A DNA stretch of 33,887 bases from an uncultured Solibacteraceae bacterium (GCA_964627685.1 CAZVKM010000002.1:1-33887); one strand, 5' to 3'. Shown: positions 14,966 through 33,359, numbered from the stretch's first letter. The notes: generated by a model from the letters alone, not told the origin. Numbers and translations are program-made.

Positions 14966-15055
14966 ATCTTTCAGTTGATCGAGACGATGTGATCCGCTTC
15001 ACGCGACGGCCCGCCTGTCGCGTCACGGCCCGCTTCCCCGGTCTTGGAGATGCTC

Positions 15056-16459
15056 ATGGACGCTCAAACCAGCATGGCCAACGTCGATTCGAACCCCTGG
15101 GCCTGGTTCGACAAGGAGCACAGTGCCTCGACCCGCTTCATGGTGAGCGGCGCGATCTGGGCCCTGGTCGGCACCTTCTTCGGCCTCTTCGCCGCCACCG
15201 AGTACTGGGCTCCCGACCTCGTCCGCATCCTGCCGCAGCTCCAGTTCGGCCGCATCCGCCCCACCCACATCAACGCCGTGGCCTTCGGCTTCATCTCCAT
15301 GAGCACTGTGGGTGCGATCTTCTACGTGATCCCCGAGCTCTGCCGCACCAAGCTCTACAGCGAGCGCCTCGCGAACGTCCTGATGATCGCCTGGAACGCC
15401 GTGCTCATCGCCGGGGTGTTCTGCCTCACCAACGGCATCACCGAGGGCCGCGAGTACGCCGAGCTGCCTTGGTTCCTCGACATCCCGATGTTCATCGCCC
15501 TGATGACCTACATCGTGATCGTGTGGGGCACGGTGCTGAACCGCCAGGAGAAGCAGCTCTACGTGACCACCTGGTACGTGGCCGGCACCACCCTCTGGTT
15601 CCCCGTGGTCTACCTCATCGGCAACCGCGTGTTCTTCCAGATGGACGGCATCGCCGACTCCATCGCCCAGTGGTTCTACGGCCACAACATCCTGGGCCTC
15701 TGGTTCACCACCAACGGCATCGGCCTGACCTACTACTTCCTGCCCAAGATCACCAAGAACCCCCTCTACAGCCACCTGCTGAGCATCGTGGGCTTCTCCA
15801 CCATCGCGATGTTCTACACCCCCACCGGCACGCACCATCTCCTGCAGATGCCCGTGCCCGAATGGCTCAAGGCCGTGGCCGTGATCAGCTCCGTGATGCT
15901 GCTCGTCCCCGTGATGAGCGTGCTCGTGAACTTCTTCCTGACCATGAAGGGCAAGTGGGGCATGATCGCCACCAACCTGCCCCTGCGGTTCTTCCTGACC
16001 GCGATGTGGTTCTACCTCCTGACCTGCTTCACGGGCCCCTTCCAGGCCACCCGCTGGATCAACTGGTACCTCCACTACACCCACTGGGTGGTGGGCCACG
16101 CCCACTTCGCCCTGCTGGGCACCTTCGGCTTCGTGGCCTGGGGCGCCCTCTACTACTGCGTGCCCCGTGTGACCGGCAAGCAGTGGTACAGCCGCCGACT
16201 GGCCAACGCCCACTACTGGCTGAGCCTCTCGGGCACGGTGATCATGATGATCGCCCTGACCGTGGCCGGCCTCGCCCAGGCCGCCGCCTGGGAGGAGGGC
16301 ACCGTGGTCTACCGCACCGTGATCCAGGTGGCCCCCTTCATGGGCCTGCGCGTCTTCAGCGGTCTCCTGATCGTCGTGGGCCAGGTGCTGCTGGTCTACA
16401 ACATCCTGATGACCGTGTTCGGCTCTGATGCGGCCGACACGATGGAACCCCAGGACTGA
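15056..16459 (+). CDS. ccoN: cbb3-type cytochrome c oxidase subunit I
   Basis: 12-TM haem-copper oxidase pattern: FGRIRPTHINAVAFGF, WFYGHNILGLWFT, YTPTGTHHLLQ and HYTHWVVGHAHFALLGTFGF. GGAG lies 6 nt upstream of the ATG at 15056; the ATG at 15050 or TTG at 15044 are possible. Confidence 0.92.
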   Translation: MDAQTSMANVDSNPWAWFDKEHSASTRFMVSGAIWALVGTFFGLFAATEYWAPDLVRILPQLQFGRIRPTHINAVAFGFISMSTVGAIFYVIPELCRTKLYSERLANVLMIAWNAVLIAGVFCLTNGITEGREYAELPWFLDIPMFIALMTYIVIVWGTVLNRQEKQLYVTTWYVAGTTLWFPVVYLIGNRVFFQMDGIADSIAQWFYGHNILGLWFTTNGIGLTYYFLPKITKNPLYSHLLSIVGFSTIAMFYTPTGTHHLLQMPVPEWLKAVAVISSVMLLVPVMSVLVNFFLTMKGKWGMIATNLPLRFFLTAMWFYLLTCFTGPFQATRWINWYLHYTHWVVGHAHFALLGTFGFVAWGALYYCVPRVTGKQWYSRRLANAHYWLSLSGTVIMMIALTVAGLAQAAAWEEGTVVYRTVIQVAPFMGLRVFSGLLIVVGQVLLVYNILMTVFGSDAADTMEPQD

Positions 16460-16479
16460 GCCGAGCCGAGGAATTGACG

Positions 16480-17796
16480 ATGACCACCCAACGCGCCAAC
16501 TACCTCTACCCCTCCATCGGGATGGGCCTGATCCTCAGCGCCATCATCTTCGTGGTGGTGCTCGTGCCCCGCTGGACCTTCAAGCCGGCCCAGCCCAAGG
16601 ACCTCCGCAACTACACCGCCCAGGAGCAGCGCGGCCGCACGGTGTACCGCCGTGAGGGCTGCTGGTACTGCCACTCCATGGCGAGCCGCCCCCAGGACTG
16701 GGACCACGGCGTGAAGAGCAAGGCCAGCGACTACTTCTACGACCACGATGGCCACCTGCTCGGCTCCGAGCGGAGCGGCCCCGATCTGGCCAACATCGGC
16801 GGCAAGTTCCCCGACGAGTACCACGATCAGCACCACCGGGATCCCCGCAGCCTCAAGCCCGGCAGCATCATGCCCCGCTACGACTACCTCTCCAAGCAGG
16901 ACATGACCGACGTGGTGGCCTTCCTCCAGGGGAACGGCCCCAACGGCACCCGGGCCCTTGACGTCCACTCGGGCGAGATGAAGTGGGCCTTCTTCACCAA
17001 GACCTGGAACCCCGACCTGCCGACCATCCGCACCGTCCCCCGCAGCGAGGTCCAGCCCGGCGAGAAGATCGTGGGCGAGATCAACAAGGATTTCGTGACG
17101 GTGGAAGGGAAGCCCAACGGCTGGGAGTGGGTGGCCAACTGGAAGCACGGCGTGCGTGAGCGCGAGGAGATCGCCTTTAAGAACTACGAGGCGCACCCCG
17201 AGACCCCCTACAAGTACACCGCCGAGATCGAGGAGTTCATGTACGGGACCTCCCACGAGGCCCAGAACGCCAAGACCCCCCTCAACGCCCTGGCCACCAA
17301 GGCCTTCGCCAACGAGGAGGAGCTGCACCACGCCCGCACCGAGAACCCCGACGTGGCCCCCTGGACGGAAGTCTCCTTCAAGGAGCCCGAAGTCCTCCCG
17401 ACGGACGTGGTCGGCCTCAAGGCCCTCGAAGCCCGCCGCGTGGTCGCGAACCAGGGTCGCGGCATCTACAACCAGAAGTGCTCCGCCTGCCACGGCCTCG
17501 ATGGCAACGGCCACGGCTGGGCCAGCGCCAGCATGACCAAGCGGGCCGCCAACTTCTGGGAGGATAAGTTCCAGAACTACAAGACCGACACCTGGTACTG
17601 GCGCATCAGCCGCGGCGTCCCCGCCACGCAGATGCCCCGCTGGGAGCTGACCCTGGCCCCCGACCAGCGCCTCTACCTCGCGGCCTTCCTGAAGTACATC
17701 TCTCAGAACAAGGGCCTGGGCAAGCTGGCCGGCTCCGATGCCCCGAACGCCGGTGCGCCGCCCAGCGCCGCCGCCCCTCAGCCTTCCGCGAAGTGA
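16480..17796 (+). CDS. ccoO: CcoO (FixO) monohaem subunit fused through a ~190-aa linker to a C-terminal monohaem cytochrome c domain
   Basis: N-terminal TM helix plus GRTVYRREGCWYCHSM...SERSGPDLANIGGKF...HHRDPRSLKPGSIMPRY is the FixO signature. The C-terminal IYNQKCSACHGLDGNGHG...YWRISRGVPATQMPRW is a class I cytochrome c domain (CcoP-like). Two CxxCH motifs in total. Confidence 0.88.
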   Translation: MTTQRANYLYPSIGMGLILSAIIFVVVLVPRWTFKPAQPKDLRNYTAQEQRGRTVYRREGCWYCHSMASRPQDWDHGVKSKASDYFYDHDGHLLGSERSGPDLANIGGKFPDEYHDQHHRDPRSLKPGSIMPRYDYLSKQDMTDVVAFLQGNGPNGTRALDVHSGEMKWAFFTKTWNPDLPTIRTVPRSEVQPGEKIVGEINKDFVTVEGKPNGWEWVANWKHGVREREEIAFKNYEAHPETPYKYTAEIEEFMYGTSHEAQNAKTPLNALATKAFANEEELHHARTENPDVAPWTEVSFKEPEVLPTDVVGLKALEARRVVANQGRGIYNQKCSACHGLDGNGHGWASASMTKRAANFWEDKFQNYKTDTWYWRISRGVPATQMPRWELTLAPDQRLYLAAFLKYISQNKGLGKLAGSDAPNAGAPPSAAAPQPSAK

Positions 17797-17803
17797 GGAT
17801 CCC

Positions 17804-17959
17804 ATGAGCCAGGACCCCATGCACCACGATGAAGAGCCGATGGAGGAGGTCTCCGGGACCCGCATCGGCCACGGCAAGGCGCCCTTCGCCCTCGTCCTCC
17901 TGTACCTGATCATCCTCGTCTGGGCCGTCCTCTCCTGGATCCGCCCCAGCGGCACCTAG
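17804..17959 (+). CDS. Small single-TM protein (51 aa), possible accessory oxidase subunit
   Basis: MSQDPMHHDEEPMEEVSGTRIGHGKAPFALVLLYLIILVWAVLSWIRPSGT. Starts 7 nt after ccoO and ends 17 nt before the next gene. One hydrophobic helix. No recognisable FixQ motif. Confidence 0.5.
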   Translation: MSQDPMHHDEEPMEEVSGTRIGHGKAPFALVLLYLIILVWAVLSWIRPSGT

Positions 17960-17976
17960 TCGGAAGCGAGGCCTCG

Positions 17977-18978
17977 ATGAAGAAGATCCATTCGAACCTC
18001 TCCCTCGCCGTGCTGGCCCTCGGCCTCCTCGGCCTGGGCTGCGCCAGTGAAGGTCTGGGGGGCAAGGCCCCCGCCGGCGAGCTGATCCAGGCCGTGAACG
18101 CCGTCCCCGGCGGCCTCGAAGGCGTGGAACCCGACGCCCCCTATCCCCTCGGCCTCCCCTCGGCCGTAAAGGGCCGTCCGCTCTATCAGGCGAACTGCGC
18201 CTCCTGCCATGGCACCTGGTACACCGCCCAGGAGCGCCTCGATCTGGCGGCGGGCAAGCCCGAGGTGATCGAGCGCCTCAAGGCCGAGCACCGCGAACCC
18301 GGCAACGCCCTGGAGAAGGCCAAGGTTGGTCCCGACTTCGCCGGCCGTGACTGGCGCTTCCAGCGCACCCCCGCCGAGCTGTTCAACCTCGTCGCCTACG
18401 GCAGCGATCGCGTCGTGGCCAAGGGCAACACCTTCGTCCCGGCCATGGCCAAGGACGGCAAGGCCCTCGGCAAGCTCCACCCGGGCCCCGACGGGAAGCC
18501 CGGCATCGGCTGGATCGACCACCTCAAGGACAACCGTGGCAACGTGATGGTGGCGGCCAACGATCCCATGCCCGTGTGGCACAGCATCTACTACGTGTGG
18601 TCCCGTTCCATCGCTGGCGTGGCGCCGGATCAGTACAAGAAGGCCTGGGATGTCTACGGCCAGAACTGCAACGTGTGCCACGGCGTGATGGGCAAGGGCG
18701 ACGGTCCCCTGTCTCGCACGATCACCCCCGCGCCCTTCAACTTCCACAACCGCAAGGCCATGGCGGAACAGACGGATGAGTTCCTCTACTGGCGCATCTC
18801 GGAGGGGGGCCAGTTCAAGTCCATCCCCGAGAGCATCCAGAACACCATGAGCCGTTCCGCCCTGGGACTGTACGTCCACCAGTGGTCCGCCATGCCCGCC
18901 TGGAAGGGCGTGCTCACGCCCGAGAAGCGCTGGCTGGCCGTCGACGGTGTGCGCATGAAGTCCTACGAGCAGGACTAG
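17977..18978 (+). CDS. Dihaem c-type cytochrome lipoprotein
   Basis: Lipobox LGLLGLGC. Two CxxCH motifs (CASCHG, CNVCHG). The second domain ends with a Met-ligand block (WSAMPAW). Confidence 0.85.
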   Translation: MKKIHSNLSLAVLALGLLGLGCASEGLGGKAPAGELIQAVNAVPGGLEGVEPDAPYPLGLPSAVKGRPLYQANCASCHGTWYTAQERLDLAAGKPEVIERLKAEHREPGNALEKAKVGPDFAGRDWRFQRTPAELFNLVAYGSDRVVAKGNTFVPAMAKDGKALGKLHPGPDGKPGIGWIDHLKDNRGNVMVAANDPMPVWHSIYYVWSRSIAGVAPDQYKKAWDVYGQNCNVCHGVMGKGDGPLSRTITPAPFNFHNRKAMAEQTDEFLYWRISEGGQFKSIPESIQNTMSRSALGLYVHQWSAMPAWKGVLTPEKRWLAVDGVRMKSYEQD

Positions 18979-18989
18979 GGGAGACGACG

Positions 18990-19646
18990 ATGCAAGAGAA
19001 CACCCGCCGGACCCTCCTCAAGACCCTCACGGCCCTGCCCATCATCGGCGGCGCCATCGAGCTGCAGCACGTGATCCTTCGCTACTTCAAGCCCACCATG
19101 GCGGGCGGCCTGAAGAGCATGGTGGCCGAGCCCGACAGCGCCGGCAGCTCCGAGCAGGAGATCGCCGATCTCGACGAACTGAAGAACCCCTGGGACTTCA
19201 AGGAGTTCATCTACGTCCGCAAGTCGGTGGAGTACAGCAGCCGCAAGTGGCAGGGCGCCAAGATCCCGGCCTTCATCGTGCGCCTGCCCGAGGAGTACAT
19301 CACCGACAAGAAGGACCCCAAGGGCGCCTACGTCGTGGTGCAGCGCATCTGCCCGCACCTCGGGTGCACCTTCAACTTCATCAGCAACTCGGAAGAGCTC
19401 GCCGGCGGCTACAACTACAAGGCCCCGGCGCCCTTCCACCCCTTTTTCGCGTGCCCGTGCCACCTTTCCGTGTACGATCCGACGCGTCCCCAGCCCATCG
19501 CGGGGACCGTGGCGGGCAAGCCCTTCGACAAGCTGCCGGGCAAGGTGGTCTCCGGACCCGCGCCCCGTCCTCCCCGCACCATGTCCTTCGACATCCGTGG
19601 CACGAAGATCGTGATCACGGATACCGAAGGCGGCGGTGTGGGTTAG
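18990..19646 (+). CDS. Rieske [2Fe-2S] iron-sulfur subunit with Tat signal
   Basis: Twin-arginine motif TRRTLLK followed by a hydrophobic helix. Rieske boxes CPHLGC and CPCHLS. GGGGAGA RBS upstream of the ATG at 18990; the track's 36-aa N-terminal extension was rejected. Confidence 0.88.
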   Translation: MQENTRRTLLKTLTALPIIGGAIELQHVILRYFKPTMAGGLKSMVAEPDSAGSSEQEIADLDELKNPWDFKEFIYVRKSVEYSSRKWQGAKIPAFIVRLPEEYITDKKDPKGAYVVVQRICPHLGCTFNFISNSEELAGGYNYKAPAPFHPFFACPCHLSVYDPTRPQPIAGTVAGKPFDKLPGKVVSGPAPRPPRTMSFDIRGTKIVITDTEGGGVG

Positions 19647-19662
19647 AGGCAGGAGGAGACCG

Positions 19663-21273
19663 ATGCTGACCAAGATCTGGAACGTCCTGCAGGGCCTTCT
19701 TCCGCGCCGTGGCGTGGCCGGCCACGTCTACCACGGCGTCCTCAACGCCCCCGTGAACTTCATCGAGTGGTTCAAGGAGCGCTGGGACAAGATGGACCTC
19801 TTCGACGAGACCCACGTCGAGAAGGCCAAGACCAACCCCTTCTATGCCATCGGCGGCATGTGGTACTGGGTGTGGATGCTCGTGATCGCCAGCGGCGTGC
19901 TGCTGATGATCTACTACGTGCCCGACACCAGCCAGGCCTTCGTGTCCATCGAGCGCATGCAGGCCAACTGGAAGTGGGGTGAGATCCCCATCGGCGCCAT
20001 CATCCGCGGCATGCACAAGTACGGTGCGGACGCCTTCATCATCCTCGCCACCATCCGCGTGTACCGCATCTGGTTCAGCGGCGGGTACAAGGGCGGCCAT
20101 GAGCTCAGCTTCATCGTGGCCCTCCTGCTCCTCATCATCGGCATGTACTCCGGCCTCACCGGCTACCTGCTGATCTGGAACCAGCGCGCCCTGTGGGCGA
20201 CCAAGGTGATGGCGACCTTCCCCACCTACCTGGACAAGAACCCCAGCTGGATACCCGGCGGCGACTTCATCAACTGGACGAACCAGGGCAAGACCACCGC
20301 GCAGATCCTGCTCGGCGGCACCTCCATCGGTCCGGCCACGGTGACGCGGTTCTACGCCTTCCACTTCATGCTGTCGTTCCTCGTGATGATCTTCTTCGAG
20401 CTCCGCGTCTACCATCGCGGCTTCAAGCGGATGAACATCAGCCGCTGGTCGAAGTTCATCCTCTTCATGATCCTCGCGGGCATGGCCATCCTCATCCCGG
20501 CCGCCCAGGGCAGCCCGGCCAACCCCGAGGTCACCCCGAACCCCATCCTCAGCGACTGGTACTTCCTCGCGATGTACCACATGCTCAAGCTCCAGGATCC
20601 CTACCTGGCCACGATCCTCACCGTGGGCGTGCCCGCCCTGGTGCTGCTGGCCCTTTTCCTGGATCGCCGGCCGGAGACGGCCTGGAACGAGCGCCAGATC
20701 GCCAACTGGATCGGCATCGGCGGCCTCATCTACTTCATCGTCTTCAGCTTCCTGATCATCAACAGCATCGCGGACCTCCACCGGGACGCCCCCCTCTGGT
20801 ACTACTCCATGGGCCTCTTCCTGCTCATCGGGTACTTCAAGGACTGGGGCTACGTGATGAAGCGGGACGGGAAGCAGTGGTGGGAGACCTTCCACCTCTT
20901 CTTCGTCGCCTTCCTGGTCGTCTCCATGAGCGCCAACACGCTCTTCCACTACTTCGGCGACATCCGCGAGTGGAACGTGCTGGCCAAGGCCGAGCTGCCC
21001 AAGGTCCTCGCCGCGCACCCCGGGTTCACCCAGGATCAGGCCCTCGACTTCCTCGAGAAGACCAAGCCGGGCCTGAACCTCTGGATGACCCCGGAAGCGA
21101 CCGTGGCCAAGGGCATGCCCAAGGGCCTGGAGCTCTGGAAGATCCACGTCCTCGGGTGGCTCTTCATCCCCCTCGCGGGCACCGTCATCGGCCTGAAGCG
21201 CTGGGCTGACAAGCGGGACGCCCTCCTCGCCGCCGCGGCCGCCAAGGCCAAGGCCAAGACCGCGGGAGCCTAG
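19663..21273 (+). CDS. Cytochrome b (fused b6 + subunit IV type, extended C-terminus); Arg replaces His at the second haem-ligand position of helix B and at +14 in helix D
   Basis: AGGAGGAG RBS. RGMHKYGADAFIILATIRVYRIWFSGGYKGGHELSF aligns residue-for-residue with the b6 helix B block R.IHRW.A......ILHVFRVY..GGFKKPRELTW, but position +14 is Arg. Helix D reads TRFYAFHFMLSFLVMIFFELRVYH (His0, Arg+14, His+17). The Qo-loop PEWY equivalent is SDWYF. About 10 TM helices. Confidence 0.85.
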   Translation: MLTKIWNVLQGLLPRRGVAGHVYHGVLNAPVNFIEWFKERWDKMDLFDETHVEKAKTNPFYAIGGMWYWVWMLVIASGVLLMIYYVPDTSQAFVSIERMQANWKWGEIPIGAIIRGMHKYGADAFIILATIRVYRIWFSGGYKGGHELSFIVALLLLIIGMYSGLTGYLLIWNQRALWATKVMATFPTYLDKNPSWIPGGDFINWTNQGKTTAQILLGGTSIGPATVTRFYAFHFMLSFLVMIFFELRVYHRGFKRMNISRWSKFILFMILAGMAILIPAAQGSPANPEVTPNPILSDWYFLAMYHMLKLQDPYLATILTVGVPALVLLALFLDRRPETAWNERQIANWIGIGGLIYFIVFSFLIINSIADLHRDAPLWYYSMGLFLLIGYFKDWGYVMKRDGKQWWETFHLFFVAFLVVSMSANTLFHYFGDIREWNVLAKAELPKVLAAHPGFTQDQALDFLEKTKPGLNLWMTPEATVAKGMPKGLELWKIHVLGWLFIPLAGTVIGLKRWADKRDALLAAAAAKAKAKTAGA

Positions 21274-21276
21274 GCC

Positions 21277-21567
21277 ATGTATCACCAGGGGCGCATCAAG
21301 GCCAGCAAGTGGGTGGGGATCCTCCTCGCCGTCGTGCTGCTGAGCCAGTCCATCGCCCACTGGAAGGCCTTCTTCGCCAACGCCGGATTCATGAGCTACG
21401 TCGTGCTGATCGCCACCCTCACCCTCTTCCTCCTCCTGATGGTGGGGCTGATGGTGGTGGTCTACGCCGAAGAGAAGGTCCGGGGCAACGTGCAGCATCC
21501 CCGCCCCTGGTTCGAGCGCCTGGCGGACCGCTTCTTCCTGATTCATTCCGATTCATCGAGGGGTTGA
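21277..21567 (+). CDS. Small membrane protein (96 aa, 2 TM)
   Basis: Starts 3 nt after cytochrome b. Hydrophobic helices WVGILLAVVLLSQSI and YVVLIATLTLFLLLMVGLMVVVY. No family recognised. Confidence 0.55.
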   Translation: MYHQGRIKASKWVGILLAVVLLSQSIAHWKAFFANAGFMSYVVLIATLTLFLLLMVGLMVVVYAEEKVRGNVQHPRPWFERLADRFFLIHSDSSRG

Positions 21568-21569
21568 CC

Positions 21570-21935
21570 GTGAAAAAACGGAACATCTTCGGCACCATCT
21601 TCCTGGTCTTCGGCCTTGGGATCTTCTTCGTGCTCGGGGCGAGCAGCATCAGCGCCGAACTCCACGACGTGCTCCATGAGGCGCCCATGGGCGGCAAGCT
21701 CCGTCAGGAGAAGGCTCCCAAGCCCGTGAGCAAGGCCATCGACGCGGTGCTCCCCGCCACCGTGGCGGAGCTTCCGCACATCAAGGCCGTGAACCCCCAG
21801 AGCCAGAGCACCAGCGACAATCCCTTCCAGCAGTTCAACGTCGTCCGCTGGATGGGCTGGGCCTTCGTGATCGCCGCCCTCGCCGAAGTGGGCGTGGCCT
21901 ACTGGACCCGCACCAAGGTCCAGGTGCAGGAGTAG
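21570..21935 (+). CDS. Small membrane protein (121 aa) with N- and C-terminal TM helices
   Basis: GTG at 21570, 2 nt after the previous stop, with a GAGGGG RBS. (M)KKRNIFGTIFLVFGLGIFFVLGASS ... WMGWAFVIAALAEVGVAYW. The track ORF 21309-21935 is the same frame with a spurious extension. Confidence 0.5.
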   Translation: MKKRNIFGTIFLVFGLGIFFVLGASSISAELHDVLHEAPMGGKLRQEKAPKPVSKAIDAVLPATVAELPHIKAVNPQSQSTSDNPFQQFNVVRWMGWAFVIAALAEVGVAYWTRTKVQVQE

Positions 21936-21943
21936 GAGGCACC

Positions 21944-23218
21944 ATGTACAAGAAATTCCTCCAGCTCACCAAGAACCTCACGGTCTCCCTCGAGAAGGGC
22001 GTGAACTTCCTGACCACCCAGGAGCACAACCCCCTGTACTTCCACGGGGCCCTGCCGCTCTACACCTTCTGGTTCCTGATCTTCTCCGGCATCCTGCTGT
22101 GGATGTACTACATCCCCACCCTGGAGCGGGCCTGGTCCAGCGTGAACTACATCACCAGCCTGCCCGTGTTCCTGAAGGACGCCTCCGGCCAGCTGGTCCT
22201 CGACAGGAATGGCGCGCCGGTCATCGACGCCGTCAACGTCGCCACGGGCATCCCCTACGGGGCCGTGGTCCGCGGCATCCACCGCTGGGGCGCCGCCGGC
22301 ATGATGATCACCACGCTGCTGCACATGTTCCGCGTGTACTTCACGGACCGCCACCGCGCCTGGCGCTGGCTGCCCTGGGTCTCCGGCGTGTTCCTGCTCC
22401 TCTTCCTGCTCTTCGTGGGCGTGACCGGCTACCTGCTAGTGTGGGACGCCCGGGCCTACCGCATGGTCGTGGAGACCCAGGAGTTCCTGCGGGCCGTGCC
22501 CCTCGCCGGGGCCTGGATGGCGGACTTCCTCGTGGGTGGCAGCGGCATCAGCGACTACACGATCACCCGCTTCTTCTTCTTCCACATCGGCGGGGCCGCC
22601 TTCCTCTTCGTGCTGATCTGGGTGCACTTCATCCGCCTGCATGAGCCCGTGGTCACCCCGAGCCGCGCCAGCAACTTCCTCACCCTCGGCTTCATCCTGG
22701 TGGCCGCCGGCGCCCTGCCCGCCATCAACATCACCGAGCAGCTCATCCAGCAGTTCCCCGGCCTGGCCTCGGACCGCGCCTACATCGCCTCCGACGCCCC
22801 CGCCCAGATCGGCGTGCTGGTGGGCACGATGCGCTACGACGCCTGGTACATGTTCCCCTACTACCTCATCAACAAGGCGGGCGTGAACGGCGCCTGGGCG
22901 ATCCTCTCCGTCTCGACCCTGCTGCTCATGGTGGCCCCCTTCTACCCCAAGGACCGCCGCGACAACCTGGCCTCCGTGGTGGAAGCCAAGTGCACGGGCT
23001 GCACCTTCTGCTCCCTGGACTGCCCCTTCGAGGCCATCACGATGCAGGAGCGGGCCCCCGGGTCCAAGTTCAAGCTCATCGCCGTGGTGCAGGAGGCCCG
23101 CTGCTCCGAGTGCGGCATCTGCGTCGGGGCCTGCCCCTTCCAGGCCATCGAGCTCCCGAACACGCATTCCAAGACCATCGAAGCTGAAGTGCTCGACCTT
23201 CTGAAGACGGGGGCCTAA
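21944..23218 (+). CDS. Cytochrome b (canonical four His ligands, 6 TM) fused to a C-terminal 2x[4Fe-4S] ferredoxin domain
   Basis: Helix B is RGIHRWGAAGMMITTLLHMFRVYF (His0/His+14). Helix D is RFFFFHIGGAAFLFVLIWVHF (His0/His+14). The ef-loop-like segment is RYDAWYMFPYY. The C-terminus has CTGCTFCSLDCP and CSECGICVGACP (two CxxCxxCxxxCP motifs, about 22991-23137). By helix count the ferredoxin domain is cytoplasmic. Confidence 0.85.
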   Translation: MYKKFLQLTKNLTVSLEKGVNFLTTQEHNPLYFHGALPLYTFWFLIFSGILLWMYYIPTLERAWSSVNYITSLPVFLKDASGQLVLDRNGAPVIDAVNVATGIPYGAVVRGIHRWGAAGMMITTLLHMFRVYFTDRHRAWRWLPWVSGVFLLLFLLFVGVTGYLLVWDARAYRMVVETQEFLRAVPLAGAWMADFLVGGSGISDYTITRFFFFHIGGAAFLFVLIWVHFIRLHEPVVTPSRASNFLTLGFILVAAGALPAINITEQLIQQFPGLASDRAYIASDAPAQIGVLVGTMRYDAWYMFPYYLINKAGVNGAWAILSVSTLLLMVAPFYPKDRRDNLASVVEAKCTGCTFCSLDCPFEAITMQERAPGSKFKLIAVVQEARCSECGICVGACPFQAIELPNTHSKTIEAEVLDLLKTGA

Positions 23219-23623
23219 ATGAGCGAATCCACTGAGAAGAAGCCCCGCGTCATCGTCGGATTCGTCTGCGAGCGGTCCATCCCCATCCAGGAGATGATCG
23301 ATCAGCAGAAGGCCCTCACCGACGATCCCGAGACGAAGATCGTGATCCTGCCCTGCTCGGGCATGGTGAAGCCCACCCAGATGGAGCTGGCCCTCTCCAA
23401 GGGCGCCGACGCCACCTTCGTGTGCGGCTGCGCCATCGGCGACTGCCATTACCGCACGGGCAACCTGATGATCCGCGAGCGGCTCGAAGGTGAGCGCAAT
23501 CCCAAGCTCCGCAAGACCACCGACAAGCGCCGGGTGGGCATGTTCTTCTACACCATGAAGGACCGCCGCCTGTTCCTCGAAGCCCTGGAGTCCTTCAAGG
23601 CCTCCGTGGCCGAGATCCAGTAA
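23219..23623 (+). CDS. MvhD / FlpD-like iron-sulfur protein (methyl-viologen-reducing hydrogenase delta-subunit family)
   Basis: The ATG directly abuts the preceding TAA. PRVIVGFVCERS...IVILPCSGMVKPTQMELALSKGADATFVCGCAIGDCHYRTGN matches the FlpD/MvhD pattern (C.g.v.......Al..GADGV.v.GC..GdCHy..GN). No signal peptide. Confidence 0.8.
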   Translation: MSESTEKKPRVIVGFVCERSIPIQEMIDQQKALTDDPETKIVILPCSGMVKPTQMELALSKGADATFVCGCAIGDCHYRTGNLMIRERLEGERNPKLRKTTDKRRVGMFFYTMKDRRLFLEALESFKASVAEIQ

Positions 23624-23633
23624 GGAGACGACG

Positions 23634-23768
23634 ATGGCCGCGCCCAGCAAGAACGCCGAGCCCAAGGTCAGCAGCTACATGGTCATGCTGCGGTACCTGG
23701 CCTTCTACCTCTTCTTCTTCGGAGTCCTCTACCTCGTGGGCCTCTTCGGCGAAGTGGCCGAGAGCTAG
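23634..23768 (+). CDS. Tiny single-TM protein (44 aa); below the ORF-track size cut-off
   Basis: My translation: MAAPSKNAEPKVSSYMVMLRYLAFYLFFFGVLYLVGLFGEVAES. AAGGAGA RBS 5 nt upstream. Starts 10 nt after the MvhD-like stop. Confidence 0.5.
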   Translation: MAAPSKNAEPKVSSYMVMLRYLAFYLFFFGVLYLVGLFGEVAES

Positions 23769-23784
23769 GCCAAAGGAGACCGTC

Positions 23785-23961
23785 ATGACCGAGACCCTGG
23801 ATCACCAGACGCCCGAGCAGAACGAGGACGCCCCCATCACCAACCGGGAGATCCTCAAGGAGAACTGGGTGCTCCGCAACGCCCTGATCTTCTTCATCCT
23901 CATGCTGGCGGTGCCCACCATCCTGGCTTGGAAGCTGGGCTGGTTCCTCATCGCGAACTAG
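23785..23961 (+). CDS. Tiny single-TM protein (58 aa); below the ORF-track size cut-off
   Basis: My translation: MTETLDHQTPEQNEDAPITNREILKENWVLRNALIFFILMLAVPTILAWKLGWFLIAN. AAAGGAGA RBS 5 nt upstream. Confidence 0.5.
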   Translation: MTETLDHQTPEQNEDAPITNREILKENWVLRNALIFFILMLAVPTILAWKLGWFLIAN

Positions 23962-23965
23962 GCCC

Positions 23966-23988
23966 CGGGAGCCCCCCGAGGGCTCCCG
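23966..23988 (+). terminator. 8-bp GC hairpin in the 56-nt gap before ccoS (possible attenuator or partial terminator)
   Basis: CGGGAGCC ccccgag GGCTCCCG. No U-tract. It may only be mRNA structure. Confidence 0.25.
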
Positions 23989-24017
23989 CCCCCCTTCTCC
24001 CTTCCCCTGGAGGTCCC

Positions 24018-24215
24018 ATGGATCCCATGCAGACCAAGCTCATGGTCATCACCTTCACGGTGGTGGGCCTGGCCTTCGCCGCCGGCTTCGTGATGGTGGC
24101 CGTGTGGGCCATCCGCGCGGGCCAGTTCAAGGATGTGGAGGGGGTGAAGTACCGGATGCTCGAGGACTTCAACGCCAAGGGCGCCCCGAAGGATGGCGGG
24201 GAGTTCAAGGGCTGA
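24018..24215 (+). CDS. ccoS: cbb3 oxidase maturation protein CcoS/FixS
   Basis: 65 aa with one TM helix followed by WAIRAGQFKDVEGVKYRMLED, matching the CcoS signature W....GQ[FY]DD.eg...R.L.D. GGAGG RBS. The track ORF 23928-24215 is the same frame extended. Confidence 0.8.
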   Translation: MDPMQTKLMVITFTVVGLAFAAGFVMVAVWAIRAGQFKDVEGVKYRMLEDFNAKGAPKDGGEFKG

Positions 24216-30434: not shown

Positions 30435-30471
30435 AGCGTTTGTTCCGAGGGGTTGGATCCTGAACGCGGCT

Positions 30472-30491
30472 GGCCTCCATTTCCGGAGGCC
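30472..30491 (+). terminator. Hairpin after the membrane-protein gene
   Basis: GGCCTCC atttcc GGAGGCC (7-bp stem), 38 nt after the stop at 30434. Confidence 0.4.
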
Positions 30492-30611
30492 GCTCGGAGC
30501 TTGAGTCCCGGGAATCCTTGTGTGACGGGGCTCAAAAACCGGAGGAAGGGTGGCGCCGATCAATGCCCTGATGCCCTAGGCTCCTGCAGGCTGGGGGATC
30601 CGGAGGTTCCC

Positions 30612-33359
30612 ATGTCCATGCTCACCCCTGCCGCCCCCCGTGACACCGTCCGCATCGAAGCCTGGCGCGGCGAGCACGAGCAGGCCATGGATCAGCTCGA
30701 CCTCCTCCAGAAGGCCCTCCTGGCCCGCGATTGGGCGAAAGTCGATGAAGGGGCCAAGTGGATGTACGAGGTCCAGAAGCCGCACCACGAGGCGGAGGAG
30801 AAGGACCTCCTGCCCCTCCTGGAGGAGCTGGGCGCCGAGAACCTGGTGGAGCGCATCCGTGAGGACCACCGCCGCGTGTGGGTGCTCACCCTGGACTTGC
30901 TCGCGTCCATCTCGGACGGCCACGTGGCCAATGCCGAGCATGCGATGCGCACGGCCCGGGAGCTGCTGGAGCTCATGACGGAGCACGTGGAGATGGAGGA
31001 GCGCCTCATGCTGCCCCTCCTGAGGGGCAAGAGCCTCTACACCCCCGAGGCCGTGACGGACGACGGCTACCTCATCCTCGAGAAGAAGCTCCTGGCCCCG
31101 GAGACCTGGTCCTTCATCGTGCAGGCCCCCATGGTGGCCCGCCGCCGCAAGCCCGGCCAGTTCCTCATGGTCTCGCCCTTCCCCCAGAGCGAGCGCATCC
31201 CCCTCACCCTGGCGGGCGGTGACCCCCGCGGTGGCTGGATCCGCTTCATCATGCAGGAGGTGGGTGCCACCACCCAGGCCATGGCCAAATTCCAGGCGGG
31301 GGACCGCCTCTTCGCCGTGGCCGGCCCCATGGGCGCCCCCACGGAGCTGGTGGAGGAAGGCACCGTGGTGCTCGTGGCCGGCGGCTACGGCAGCGCGGCC
31401 GTGCGGCCCGCTGCAGAGGAGCTGCACGCCGCCGGGCGCCGCGTGATCTCCATCCTGGGCGGCCGCAGCAAGGAGCGCGTGCTCCTGGCCCAGGAGCTGG
31501 GCGAGGCCTCCGATGAACTCATCATCACCACCGACGACGGCTCCCTGGGCCGCCAGGGCATCGTGACCCAGGCCCTCAAGGAGGTGCTGGAGCGGGAGAA
31601 GGTCGCCCAGGTGGTGGCCGTGGGCCCCCTGCCCATGATGCGGGCCATCTCCGACCTCACGAAGCCCTACGGCGTCTTCACCCTGGTGAGCCTCAACGCC
31701 CTCATGGTCGATGGCACCGGCATGTGCGGCGGCTGCCGCGTGGCGGTGGGCGGCGAGATGAAGTTCGCCTGCTTCGACGGGCCCGACTTCGATGGCCACA
31801 AGGTGGACTACGAGATGCTCAAGAACCGGCAGGACTGGTACCGGGGCATGGAGGCCGAGGCCAAGGAGCACGCCTGCCACATCGGCCGTTCCCCCGCGGA
31901 GTCCGGCTTCGTGATGCCCGATCTCAACGCCGCCGAGGCCGACCTGGACTGGAAGAACCTCGACCTGGCCACGCTGAAGCCCAGCCAGAAGATGAAGGTG
32001 CCCCGCCAGAACGTGGCCTGCCAGGACCCCGTGATCCGCGTGACCAACTTCAACGAGGTGACCCTCAGCCTCAGCCCCGAGCAGGCCCAGCTGGAGGCGG
32101 CCCGCTGCCTCCAGTGCAAGGTGCCCCACTGCATCGATGGCTGCCCCGTGAGCATCGACATCCCCCACTTCCTGCGCCACATCGTGGCGGGCAATCCCCA
32201 GGAGGCGGCCATGGTCATCAAGCAGAGCTCCTCCCTTGGCTCCGTGTGCGGCCGGGTGTGCCCCCAGGAGAAGCAGTGCGAGAGCAAGTGCGTGGTGGGC
32301 ATCAAGGGCGAGAGCGTGGCCATCGGCCGACTCGAGCGCTACGCCTCCGACAGCCTCCTGGGCACCGACACCCTGCCGCCCCAGCTGCCCCCCACGGGCA
32401 AGAAGGTGGCCGTCATCGGCGCGGGCCCCGCGGGCCTCACCGTGGCCGGCGAGCTGGCCTGCAAGGGCCATGAGGTCACCGTCTTCGAGGCCCTCCACAA
32501 GCCCGGCGGCGTGCTCCTCTACGGCATCCCCGAGTTCCGCCTCCCCACCGCCGTGGTGGATCAGGAGGTGGGCACCCTCAAGAAACTGGGCGTGAAGTTC
32601 ATCCTCAACACCCTCGTGGGCCGCGCCATCACGCTGGAGGAGCTGCGCGAGCAGTACGACAGCGTGTTCATGGGCACCGGCGCCGGCCTGCCCAAGATGA
32701 TGGGCGTGAAAGGCGAGGACCTGAAGGGCGTCTACACCGCCAACGAGTTCCTCACCCGCATCAACCTCATGCGTGCCGACCTCTTCCCCCACCACGGCAC
32801 CCCCATCACCGTGGGCAAGGACGTGATCATCGTGGGCTGCGGCAACACCGCCATGGATGCCGCGCGCTCCGCCCGCCGCATGGGCGCGGAGAACGTCACG
32901 GTGGTCTACCGCCGCACCCAGAAGGAGAGCACCGCCCGCCACGAGGAGCTGGAGCACGCCATGGAGGAGGGCGTGAAGTTCGCCTGGCTCCACACCCCCA
33001 CCGAGCTCCTGGGGGAGAACGGCTGGCTCAAGTTCGCCGAGTGCGCCGTGATGGAGCTCGGCGAGCCCGGTCCCGACGGCCGCCGCGGCGTGAAGATGAC
33101 CGACCAGCGCGTAAAGATCCCCTGCGACACCCTGGTGATCGCCCTGGGCTTCGACGTGAACCCCCTCCTGACCCGCAACGAAGAAGGCCTCAAGACCCTC
33201 AAGGGCGGGGTCGTGGTGGTCAACGAGGACACGGGCGAGACGAGCCTGCCGCGCCTCTTCGCCGGCGGCGACGTCATCACCGGCGGCGCCACCGTGATCC
33301 TCGCCATGGGTCAGGGCCGAAGGGCCGCGGCGGCGATGCACGCGCAGCTGAGCCACTGA
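30612..33359 (+). CDS. Triple fusion: hemerythrin-like domain + NfnA/SudB-like (PyrK-type FAD/[2Fe-2S]) + NfnB/SudA/GltD-like (2x[4Fe-4S], FAD, NADPH) oxidoreductase
   Basis: GGAGG RBS upstream of the ATG at 30612; the track's 53-aa upstream extension was rejected. The first ~150 aa carry HHE-type motifs (KPHHEAEEKDLLPLL, EDHRRVW, EHVEMEERLMLPLL). The next domain has FLMVSPF..ERIPLTLAG, VLVAGGYGSAAV and DGTGMCGGCRV....KFACFDGP. The last has CLQCKVPHCIDGCPV, CGRVCPQEKQCESKC, VAVIGAGPAGLTVAGELA, IIVGCGNTAMDAAR and FAGGDV. Confidence 0.88.
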   Translation: MSMLTPAAPRDTVRIEAWRGEHEQAMDQLDLLQKALLARDWAKVDEGAKWMYEVQKPHHEAEEKDLLPLLEELGAENLVERIREDHRRVWVLTLDLLASISDGHVANAEHAMRTARELLELMTEHVEMEERLMLPLLRGKSLYTPEAVTDDGYLILEKKLLAPETWSFIVQAPMVARRRKPGQFLMVSPFPQSERIPLTLAGGDPRGGWIRFIMQEVGATTQAMAKFQAGDRLFAVAGPMGAPTELVEEGTVVLVAGGYGSAAVRPAAEELHAAGRRVISILGGRSKERVLLAQELGEASDELIITTDDGSLGRQGIVTQALKEVLEREKVAQVVAVGPLPMMRAISDLTKPYGVFTLVSLNALMVDGTGMCGGCRVAVGGEMKFACFDGPDFDGHKVDYEMLKNRQDWYRGMEAEAKEHACHIGRSPAESGFVMPDLNAAEADLDWKNLDLATLKPSQKMKVPRQNVACQDPVIRVTNFNEVTLSLSPEQAQLEAARCLQCKVPHCIDGCPVSIDIPHFLRHIVAGNPQEAAMVIKQSSSLGSVCGRVCPQEKQCESKCVVGIKGESVAIGRLERYASDSLLGTDTLPPQLPPTGKKVAVIGAGPAGLTVAGELACKGHEVTVFEALHKPGGVLLYGIPEFRLPTAVVDQEVGTLKKLGVKFILNTLVGRAITLEELREQYDSVFMGTGAGLPKMMGVKGEDLKGVYTANEFLTRINLMRADLFPHHGTPITVGKDVIIVGCGNTAMDAARSARRMGAENVTVVYRRTQKESTARHEELEHAMEEGVKFAWLHTPTELLGENGWLKFAECAVMELGEPGPDGRRGVKMTDQRVKIPCDTLVIALGFDVNPLLTRNEEGLKTLKGGVVVVNEDTGETSLPRLFAGGDVITGGATVILAMGQGRRAAAAMHAQLSH

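Follow-up and report, generated by a model that had tools for sequence, protein, structure and literature searches.

A cbb3 oxidase operon of Acidobacteria and Melainabacteria encodes a cytochrome b without inner-haem ligands and a second cytochrome b joined to a predicted cytoplasmic iron-sulfur chain

Rieske/cytochrome b complexes are generally taken to be symmetric dimers, in which the second electron of quinol is recycled at a quinone site within the membrane. Among the cytochromes b surveyed by Kao and Hunte in 2014 (Genome Biol Evol 6:1894, PMC4122944) are fusions with a 4Fe-4S domain and an MvhD domain, which form the PDWF-FeS clade and to which no function was assigned, and, in a sister clade, fusions with a ferredoxin and a flavin oxidoreductase. 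A triple fusion (cytochrome b, ferredoxin domain, MvhD) from Chloroflexi has also been entered in an appendix table of PMC8756737. Our literature search found no functional study of cytochrome b/Fer4/MvhD proteins. Here we describe an operon located in a 33,887-nucleotide (nt) stretch of DNA from an uncultured Solibacteraceae bacterium (GCA_964627685.1, CAZVKM010000002.1:1-33887), which is referred to below, at its full length, as the window. The operon encodes (i) a cytochrome b, designated b-1, that has lost the ligands of its inner haem (bH), (ii) a second cytochrome b, designated b-2, fused to a ferredoxin domain with two predicted [4Fe-4S] clusters (Fer4), and (iii) an MvhD-like protein. 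The original prediction for this DNA, which was made from the nucleotide sequence, held that proteins of the MvhD family are not known as partners of cytochrome b; the fusions recorded in PMC4122944 and PMC8756737 make that statement outdated.

Judged by domain content, sequence motif, colinear alignment and profile retrieval, b-2 and the MvhD-like protein can be classed together as a split member of the PDWF-FeS clade. The same three modules are present in the same order, and the motif xDW[FY] replaces PEWY. The differences are that the MvhD of the window is encoded by a separate gene and that its cytochrome carries the motif YDAWY. Moreover, whereas the triple fusions examined are found in Rieske-free operons, b-2 is encoded together with a cbb3 oxidase, a Rieske protein and another cytochrome b, the bH-less b-1, which it appears to complement.

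The second close relative is cytochrome b6f, together with the menaquinol-oxidising complexes of the b6 type. Both b-1 and b-2 find their best match in cytochrome b6, and the operon includes a Rieske protein and a c-type cytochrome. Both systems also have a redox cofactor added on the negative side of the membrane (n-side) at haem bn/bH, exposed to the stroma or cytoplasm. In b6f this cofactor is haem cn, which has been proposed as the entry point of electrons from ferredoxin, and whether b6-type complexes accept electrons that a soluble donor supplies on the n-side is an open question (PMC7908018, section 4.3.1). The window proteins lack the cysteine that binds haem cn: the corresponding position (Cys35 of b6, in CxGG) is Phe33 in b-2 and an alanine in b-1. 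The n-side addition consists instead of the fused 2x[4Fe-4S] domain and MvhD, and the homodimer of b6f is replaced by two unlike cytochromes b, one of which has no bn/bH ligands.

A "complex III/IV fusion" operon has been reported in aerobic Melainabacteria (Soo et al. 2014 and 2017, cited in PMC6349859; Matheus Carnevali et al. 2019). This is the same operon, CcoN through MvhD being syntenic in 49 loci of Melainabacteria/Vampirovibrionia. In the portion of PMC6349859 available to us, petB and petC are described beside a C-type oxidase, and the second cytochrome b, the Fe-S domain, MvhD and the lost bH ligands are not mentioned. The domain combination and the operon are already on record; the division of the haems between two cytochromes b, with what it implies for the path of electrons, is not, as far as our searches reach. 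The survey of Kao and Hunte dropped every sequence missing any of the four haem-binding histidines (PMC4122944), so proteins such as b-1 would have been hidden from it.

The loss of the inner-haem ligands was recognized in phmmer alignments of b-1 with three cytochrome b6 structures, in which Arg141 of b-1 aligns with His100 of b6 and Arg257 with His202, and the ligands of the outer haem (bL) are kept (His127 and His243). Among the b-1 orthologues from loci retrieved with b-2 as the seed, the helix-B position of the bH ligand is occupied by arginine or lysine in all 68 and the helix-D position by tyrosine or arginine in 67 of 68. The replacement is common to the orthologues checked in Holophagaceae and in Melainabacteria. 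The region of the quinol-oxidation (Qo) site is invariant among the orthologues (PILSDWYFL and TGYLLIWNQRA.WATK). His260 of b-1 was considered as a displaced bH ligand and rejected, the position being variable. Apparent b-1 orthologues with all four histidines were also rejected, as they proved to be b-2 proteins or triple fusions in loci devoid of b-1. The canonical Q cycle has both haems in every cytochrome b subunit, and b-1 carries no bH ligands; because both are missing, only b-2 would be able to move electrons across the membrane.

The two cytochromes were found to accompany each other whichever of them served as the seed. A bH-less b-1 lies upstream of b-2 in 68 of 68 b-2-seeded loci with sufficient upstream sequence. 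Conversely, a scan of metagenome contigs with the b-1 motifs revealed 80 loci, 48 of which extend more than 3.4 kb downstream, and 47 of these 48 carry both b-2::Fer4 and MvhD. In the sole exception (L119, 7913-8848), the b-2 frame diverges past DIDWLYM, where the contig changes character and foreign-looking genes follow; a chimera or a break in this metagenome contig is the probable cause. On this reciprocal co-occurrence, the Qo-bearing, bH-less b-1 and the predicted dihaem, Fe-S-bearing b-2 are an obligate pair.

The b-2 open reading frame (ORF; 21944-23218, plus strand) encodes 424 amino acids (aa) and is preceded by GGAGG, 5 nt upstream of its ATG. The protein matches the Pfam families Cytochrome_B (PF00033; 91.4 bits against a cut-off of 27.2, residues 100-234) and Cytochrom_B_N_2 (PF13631; 85.7 bits), and its C-terminal part matches Fer4_7 (38.8 bits against a cut-off of 27, residues 349-401). 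Among solved structures its best matches are chains of cytochrome b6 (E 4e-24). In the alignment to these chains H113 and H214 coincide with the outer-haem ligands His86 and His187 of b6, and H127 and H228 with the inner-haem ligands His100 and His202, a numbering confirmed in PMC7908018. The ferredoxin domain contains two groups of cysteines (C350/353/356/360 and C387/390/393/397; nt 22991-23137). The four histidines and eight cysteines are invariant across 54 relatives with 38-94% identity, and the four histidines are present in 81 of 81 orthologues. An AlphaFold model (predicted local distance difference test, pLDDT, 84; predicted template modelling score, pTM, 0.79) contains an N-terminal surface helix and six transmembrane (TM) helices (36-53, 106-134, 142-164, 204-229, 241-257 and 304-333), and Foldseek aligned it with helices A-F of bc1 cytochrome b over approximately 322-335 columns. 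There was no Pfam match to the C-terminal domain of cytochrome b (PF00032); helices E and F superpose on those of bc1. The Qo-like motif is YDAWY in b-2 and its Holophagaceae clade; most relatives have xDW[FY], with an Asp conserved to at least 90%. Insertions in the AB loop (residues ~72-100), on the positive side of the membrane (p-side), and in the ef loop (~262-285) are confined to Holophagaceae and absent from the relatives in Melainabacteria and other lineages.

Cytochromes b begin on the n-side with their N-terminus. The N-terminus-in, six-helix register shared with b6/bc1, together with basic residues at the N-terminus, in the BC loop (TDRHRAWR) and after helix F (PKDRRD), places the Fer4 domain, and with it the MvhD-like protein, in the cytoplasm with fair assurance; a periplasmic Fer4 domain was rejected on the same register and charge distribution.

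The ATG of the MvhD-like gene (23219) follows the TAA of b-2 (23216-23218) with zero spacing. Its product matches the FlpD family (PF02662) far above the cut-off of 22.3 bits and over nearly the whole profile (positions 1-122 of 123), as well as solved MvhD chains (E 5e-11 to 2e-7). Cysteines C17, C46, C71 and C76 are conserved in 99-100% of 84 operon-linked orthologues; C69 is not. Hydropathy analysis detected no TM or hydrophobic segment. The original prediction had described b-2 with four histidine ligands and six helices, the cysteine motifs of a ferredoxin domain on the cytoplasmic side, and an MvhD-like ORF beginning at the base after the b-2 stop codon, and each of these features is recovered here by alignment, structural model or profile. 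The three outcomes that would have refuted it (a periplasmic Fer4 domain, no match of the next ORF to FlpD/MvhD profiles, and an artefactual fusion) were each looked for, and none was found.

This protein was rejected as a true MvhD of a hydrogenase or heterodisulfide reductase (Hdr) complex. Its scores against the NCBIfam models VhuD (48 bits, cut-off 215) and HdrA2 (53 bits, cut-off 1100) fall far short, and neither the window nor any of the related operons examined contains a gene for HdrA, HdrBC, a hydrogenase or a formate dehydrogenase. Like the MvhD of MvhAGD-HdrABC and the MvhD domain of HdrA2, it belongs to the FlpD family, has four cysteines for a [2Fe-2S] cluster and adjoins a 2x[4Fe-4S] domain. 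In the Hdr complexes the MvhD cluster connects HdrA to a donor enzyme (Mvh or Fdh), whose electrons it relays (PMC6019823, PMC5861303), whereas in the window the neighbour is a membrane haem protein and not a flavoprotein.

More distant relatives (25-31% identity), of approximately 510 or 700 aa, contain cytochrome b, Fer4 and FlpD in a single chain. These triple fusions are colinear with b-2 followed by MvhD (E 3e-38 to 1e-22) and keep the four histidines, the eight cysteines and the four FlpD cysteines. Since one polypeptide holds both modules in so many relatives, a functional link between b-2 and the MvhD-like protein, acting as a unit, is supported. A profile of the triple fusions matches at least 5772 clusters at 90% identity (E <= 1e-20); with a profile of b-2 relatives searched against 50%-identity representatives, the best 150 matches (all E < 1e-69) were mostly proteins of 480-770 aa. 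Existing annotation names the family only "hydrogenase iron-sulfur subunit" or "cytochrome b N-terminal domain-containing protein", and NCBIfam contains no dedicated family for b-2, the MvhD-like protein or the small proteins of the operon. The Fer4 domain of b-2 gives a local match to the C-terminal ferredoxin domain of HdrA/HdrA2. Fer4 and FlpD of a triple fusion cover a contiguous C-terminal stretch of the NCBIfam HdrA2 model (positions 571-775 of 777), and the window proteins cover the same region (Fer4, 572-639; MvhD-like, 644-771). Because the match spans this one stretch, the predicted Fer4/MvhD wire can be equated with the part of HdrA2 that comprises its C-terminal ferredoxin domain and its MvhD extension.

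In Qmo, HdrED, DsrMK and NarGHI a dihaem membrane cytochrome b is coupled to cytoplasmic Fe-S clusters, and in QmoABC an MvhD-like domain (QmoB) shares the complex with a cytochrome b/Fe-S fusion (QmoC). The logic of b-2 is the same, but these cytochromes have the five-helix NarI/HdrE fold, whereas b-2 has the bc1/b6 fold with a Qo region, and they are encoded alongside cytoplasmic catalytic subunits, of which the window operon has none. A NarI/HdrE-type module was thus ruled out by the fold of b-2, which matched bc-type profiles only and whose structural matches are bc1/b6f cytochromes b.

Approximately 130 loci, in Holophagaceae, Melainabacteria and other lineages, were found to contain the fusion with its adjacent MvhD gene and the cbb3/Rieske/cytochrome b operon, and in a protein search b-2 fusions with 35-94% identity were retrieved from many metagenomes. 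A scan limited to one genome per species gave 79 loci, 30 in Holophagaceae and other Acidobacteria and 49 in Melainabacteria/Vampirovibrionia. Using tblastn with the window proteins, the entire operon, including ccoN, was found to be syntenic in the Acidobacteria and Melainabacteria groups as well as in three further metagenome lineages. MvhD lies directly 3' of b-2 in 78 of 78 loci with enough sequence.

The triple fusions have a different setting. In six loci (L083-L088) the order is a small ORF, a 178-aa subunit II with the CuA motif CNEYCGIGHHTM, COX1 (566-578 aa), haem O synthase, SCO1 and cytochrome b::Fer4::FlpD, followed by a gene for a hemerythrin or for a 166-182-aa protein with a TM segment and a beta-rich periplasmic domain. 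None of the triple-fusion operons examined encodes a Rieske protein. In the operons examined the partner of the module is always a haem-copper oxidase, of the C-type in the window operon and CuA-containing in the triple-fusion operons. Some triple fusions terminate in a periplasmic cytochrome c domain, and in L085-L087 the hemerythrin gene overlaps or directly follows the 700-aa fusion gene. The 174-aa protein of L083 is a separate-gene version of the C-terminal TM and beta-rich domain of the 700-aa fusions; Pfam searches gave nothing for the 174-182-aa proteins that follow the 510-aa fusions. For the 700-aa fusions, a metal centre in their periplasmic domain was considered and dropped, as the two cysteines and two histidines of this domain are not conserved. 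A second, weak COX1-like gene (~455 aa) is located downstream in L083, L084 and L088.

Taken together with the distribution of haem ligands, b-2::Fer4 and MvhD appear to provide a Rieske/cytochrome b complex with an electron port to the cytoplasm; the complex is probably assembled with the cbb3 oxidase and would work like one of the Rieske/b type with an added n-side cofactor chain. The simplest model is a heterodimer, probably formed by b-1 and b-2, because b-1 cannot pass the electron of its bL across the membrane and bL-to-bL transfer works in bc1. Such transfer across an engineered bc1 dimer is reported to be catalytically competent (PMC4330944), and a cytochrome b of Pyrobaculum lacks one bH ligand (PMC4122944). 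In contrast to engineered bc1, the asymmetry in the window is natural, with a separate gene for each of the two cytochromes, and the one that keeps bH is the one that bears the Fe-S extension. In this model b-1 would provide the Qo site beside the Rieske protein and an outer haem only, and b-2 the sole inner haem, extended by the Fe-S wire. The chain would start at Qo of b-1 and comprise bL of b-1, bL of b-2, bH of b-2, the 2x[4Fe-4S] domain and the [2Fe-2S] cluster of MvhD, with electrons able to pass in either direction between successive centres from bL of b-1 onwards. The original prediction had proposed a wire from the membrane to the cytoplasm. Its motifs, its cytoplasmic side and the link between b-2 and MvhD stand; what it missed is the loss of bH in b-1, and it treated b-2 as an extra cytochrome b, whereas b-2 would be indispensable as the inner half of that chain's low-potential branch because b-1 has no bH ligands.

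Our preferred, still tentative reading of the wire, which we place above the outward one discussed below, is an inlet for low-potential electrons from the cytoplasm at haem bH. A soluble donor of low potential, such as ferredoxin itself or an enzyme linked to ferredoxin or to NAD(P)H, would reduce MvhD, from which the electron would reach haem bH of b-2. There, the donor electron and an electron from Qo would together reduce quinone at a single n-side site. The outcome would be a donor-assisted Q cycle, with net transfer from the donor to cytochrome c and 2 H+/e-. It can be argued that this cycle uses all the conserved features and runs downhill; estimated from textbook potentials, the span from ferredoxin to cytochrome c is approximately 0.67 V, enough for 2 H+/e-.

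Several observations favour the inlet. The homologous wire of Hdr is an input wire. Ferredoxin and flavin-reductase modules usually feed electrons inward, and the sister clade has such a module, of the NAD(P)H type. No operon examined encodes a cytoplasmic catalytic subunit, which suggests a diffusible partner or donor. In individual loci, genes of ferredoxin metabolism adjoin the operon: a 73-aa ferredoxin gene is located immediately upstream of ccoN in L081, and a 2-oxoacid:ferredoxin oxidoreductase follows the operon in L080. Finally, the hosts seem to be heterotrophs (for Melainabacteria, PMC6349859), which would need to oxidise low-potential reductant rather than make it.

Other observations weigh against the inlet. 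The heterodimer on which it is built was deduced from complementarity and linkage. An n-side quinone site in b-2 is only putative, as His233, which aligns with the histidine of the quinone-reduction (Qi) site of bc1, is not conserved in the family. The funnelling of the whole low-potential chain through an Fe-S-linked haem fits an outlet at least equally well. Holophagae use menaquinone, and with this quinone a Rieske protein of the high-potential class would leave the second electron of quinol unusually reducing, another point in favour of an outlet.

As an outlet, the complex would have no quinone-reduction site. The first electron of quinol would pass from Qo of b-1 through the Rieske protein and cytochrome c to cbb3, and the second through the two bL haems, bH, the 2x[4Fe-4S] domain and MvhD to a cytoplasmic acceptor, that is, quinone-based bifurcation with a soluble low-potential product. 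We consider it unlikely, though the strongest of the alternatives, that the complex has abandoned the Q cycle in this way and that oxygen reduction by cbb3 pays for the reduction of a soluble carrier. Besides the unconserved Qi-type histidine and the absence of any competing exit from the bH-less b-1, which forces all low-potential electrons through the Fe-S-linked haem, the Rieske protein speaks for it: CPCHLSVY forms box II in 123 of the 144 orthologues, and this S-Y signature denotes high potential according to Kao and Hunte, even though they found the xDWY-type Qo motif paired only with low-potential Rieske proteins (PMC4122944). By the same rules, the pairing of an S-Y Rieske protein with an xDWY motif in this operon is unusual. 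Similar proposals have reportedly been made for Rieske/b complexes of anammox bacteria (PMC12954380).

The energetics argue against an outlet. With menaquinol at -74 mV and the Rieske protein at approximately +280 mV, the second electron is estimated at approximately -430 mV on the p-side, of which only about -280 to -350 mV is left after crossing the membrane, making reduction of ferredoxin unlikely and that of NAD(P)+ borderline. The suggestion in the original prediction that quinol oxidation reduces "ferredoxin-level acceptors" is therefore energetically marginal, given the membrane potential in this estimate. Half of the electrons would also have to find a cytoplasmic acceptor in stoichiometric amounts, for which no gene lies nearby in the operons examined. 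An "extended Q cycle", in which the exported electron returns via a proton-pumping, ferredoxin-dependent complex I, was rejected by energy balance, since by our estimate this recycling exceeds the available energy. In addition, the related triple fusions operate in Rieske-free operons, where this mechanism is not available to them, and the heterotrophic hosts would again be expected to oxidise low-potential reductant.

Still less likely is a plain wire, in which reductant passes via MvhD, Fer4, bH and bL to p-side cytochrome c or the oxidase, independently of quinone, for example for scavenging of oxygen or redox balancing at low O2. It would suit the triple-fusion operons, whose only encoded redox partner is the CuA oxidase with its assembly factors, the members ending in a periplasmic cytochrome c domain, and the overlap of a hemerythrin gene with the end of the 700-aa forms. 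Such a wire would, however, need no more than a four-helix bundle, yet helices E and F and xDW[FY] are kept family-wide, including in the Rieske-free members. An outward flow through b-2 would run into the electrons from bL of b-1 if no sink (e.g. a quinone site) exists, and little energy would be conserved.

It is improbable that the module is non-catalytic and serves the biogenesis, repair or regulation of the oxidase, e.g. by providing CcoG-like electrons for copper or haem handling, or by redox sensing. The triple-fusion gene directly follows those of haem O synthase and SCO1, and the window module lies between the structural genes and CcoS, which speaks for such a role; but it stands among the structural genes with close or no spacing, and the Rieske/b complex has no other source of haem bH. 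The cbb3 oxidases need neither haem O/A nor SCO1-type CuA assembly, and a single role of this kind cannot cover both genetic contexts.

That the fusion is an assembly or frameshift artefact, or a decaying duplicate of cytochrome b, can be dismissed with near certainty: apart from the L119 contig, which ends within b-2 where its sequence changes character, nothing speaks for it, and it is refuted by conservation, the fusion occurring with intact motifs and invariant ligands in approximately 130 independent loci from several phyla and having the third-position G+C content of genuine genes in the window (0.88-0.92).

The window has a G+C content of approximately 69%, and the proteins of the region are 89-94% identical to their counterparts in metagenome-assembled genomes of Holophagaceae (Acidobacteriota). 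The genes of b-2::Fer4 and MvhD belong to a single plus-strand operon, which spans positions 15044-24215 of the window and begins with ccoN (Table 1). A scan for promoters and terminators gave counts no better than chance.

Table 1. Predicted features of the operon (positions in the window; Pfam and NCBIfam scores in bits).
Feature	Position	Strand	Evidence and remarks
CcoN, catalytic subunit of cbb3-type (C-family) haem-copper oxidase	15044-16459	+	Pfam COX1 286 bits
CcoO fused to CcoP-like cytochrome c domain, 440 aa	16474-17796	+	Pfam FixO 107 bits, Cytochrom_C 63.6 bits
Dihaem cytochrome c, N-terminal signal/anchor	17977-18978	+	Pfam Cytochrome_CBB3 52.9 bits, two stretches; CASCH and CNVCH
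Rieske iron-sulfur protein	18990-19646	+	Start codon uncertain, ORF open from 18882; Pfam Rieske 18.9 bits
Cytochrome b-1	19636-21273	+	Pfam Cytochrome_B 77 bits, Cytochrom_B_C 34.6 bits
Small membrane protein, 96 aa, ~2 TM helices	21277-21567	+	Hydropathy
Small membrane protein, 121 aa, GTG start, TM helix at each end	21570-21935	+	Start from sequence; hydropathy
Cytochrome b-2, membrane domain: helices A-F, ligands of both haems, YDAWY variant Qo motif	21944-22960	+	
Cytochrome b-2, C-terminal 2x[4Fe-4S] ferredoxin domain, predicted cytoplasmic	22961-23218	+	Pfam Fer4_7, Fer4
FlpD/MvhD-family protein, 134 aa, predicted [2Fe-2S], soluble	23219-23623	+	Pfam FlpD 70.5 bits
Single-helix micro-protein, 44 aa	23634-23768	+	GGAG before ATG; third-position G+C 0.87; tblastn conservation
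CcoS/FixS, cbb3 oxidase maturation	24018-24215	+	Pfam FixS 36.3 bits (cut-off 23.1); NCBIfam ccoS 22.6 bits, below cut-off

CcoO and the CcoP-like domain are joined in a single protein, in place of the usual separate ccoO and ccoP genes. The score of the Rieske protein is under the Pfam threshold (20.3 bits); the protein contains both cluster-binding boxes (CPHLGC and CPCHLSVY) and a Tat-like TRRTLLK motif. Two small membrane proteins are always encoded between b-1 and b-2 and have 60-144 aa in other lineages. The first slot is occupied by a gene of 86-144 aa in every lineage, and the position of the second is conserved. Neither has an informative family match in Pfam or NCBIfam, and they are probably additional subunits of the complex. 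The 44-aa ORF, which begins 10 nt past the MvhD stop codon and is absent from the default-length ORF listing, was found by tblastn directly after MvhD in 82 loci, including those of Melainabacteria, with the C-terminal motif FG(E/L)(V/I)AE; its product may be a membrane tether of MvhD or an oxidase subunit. Further downstream in the window (30453-33359, plus strand) a 968-aa protein is encoded that combines a hemerythrin with NfnA-like (NAD_binding_1, DHODB Fe-S) and NfnB/GltD-like (Fer4_20, Pyr_redox_2) parts, and this fusion is retained downstream of the operon in the close relatives L001 and L003.

The operon, which is widespread in Holophagaceae, in most of the aerobic Melainabacteria sampled and in other lineages, appears to divide one job between two cytochromes b, with a predicted wire of three Fe-S clusters connecting the sole inner haem to the cytoplasm. 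The triple-fusion family to which the module is related is among the larger uncharacterised families of respiratory proteins. Should the wire be an outlet, the complex would represent a new kind of energy-coupled bifurcation, the first in aerobic respiratory chains that is quinone-based and yields a soluble product of low potential. If the preferred inlet reading is true, the complex, which occurs in the non-photosynthetic sister group of cyanobacteria, would be a natural, hard-wired example of ferredoxin input on the n-side, a subject of decades of debate on b6f and cyclic electron flow, and would give a ferredoxin:O2 chain without need of complex I.

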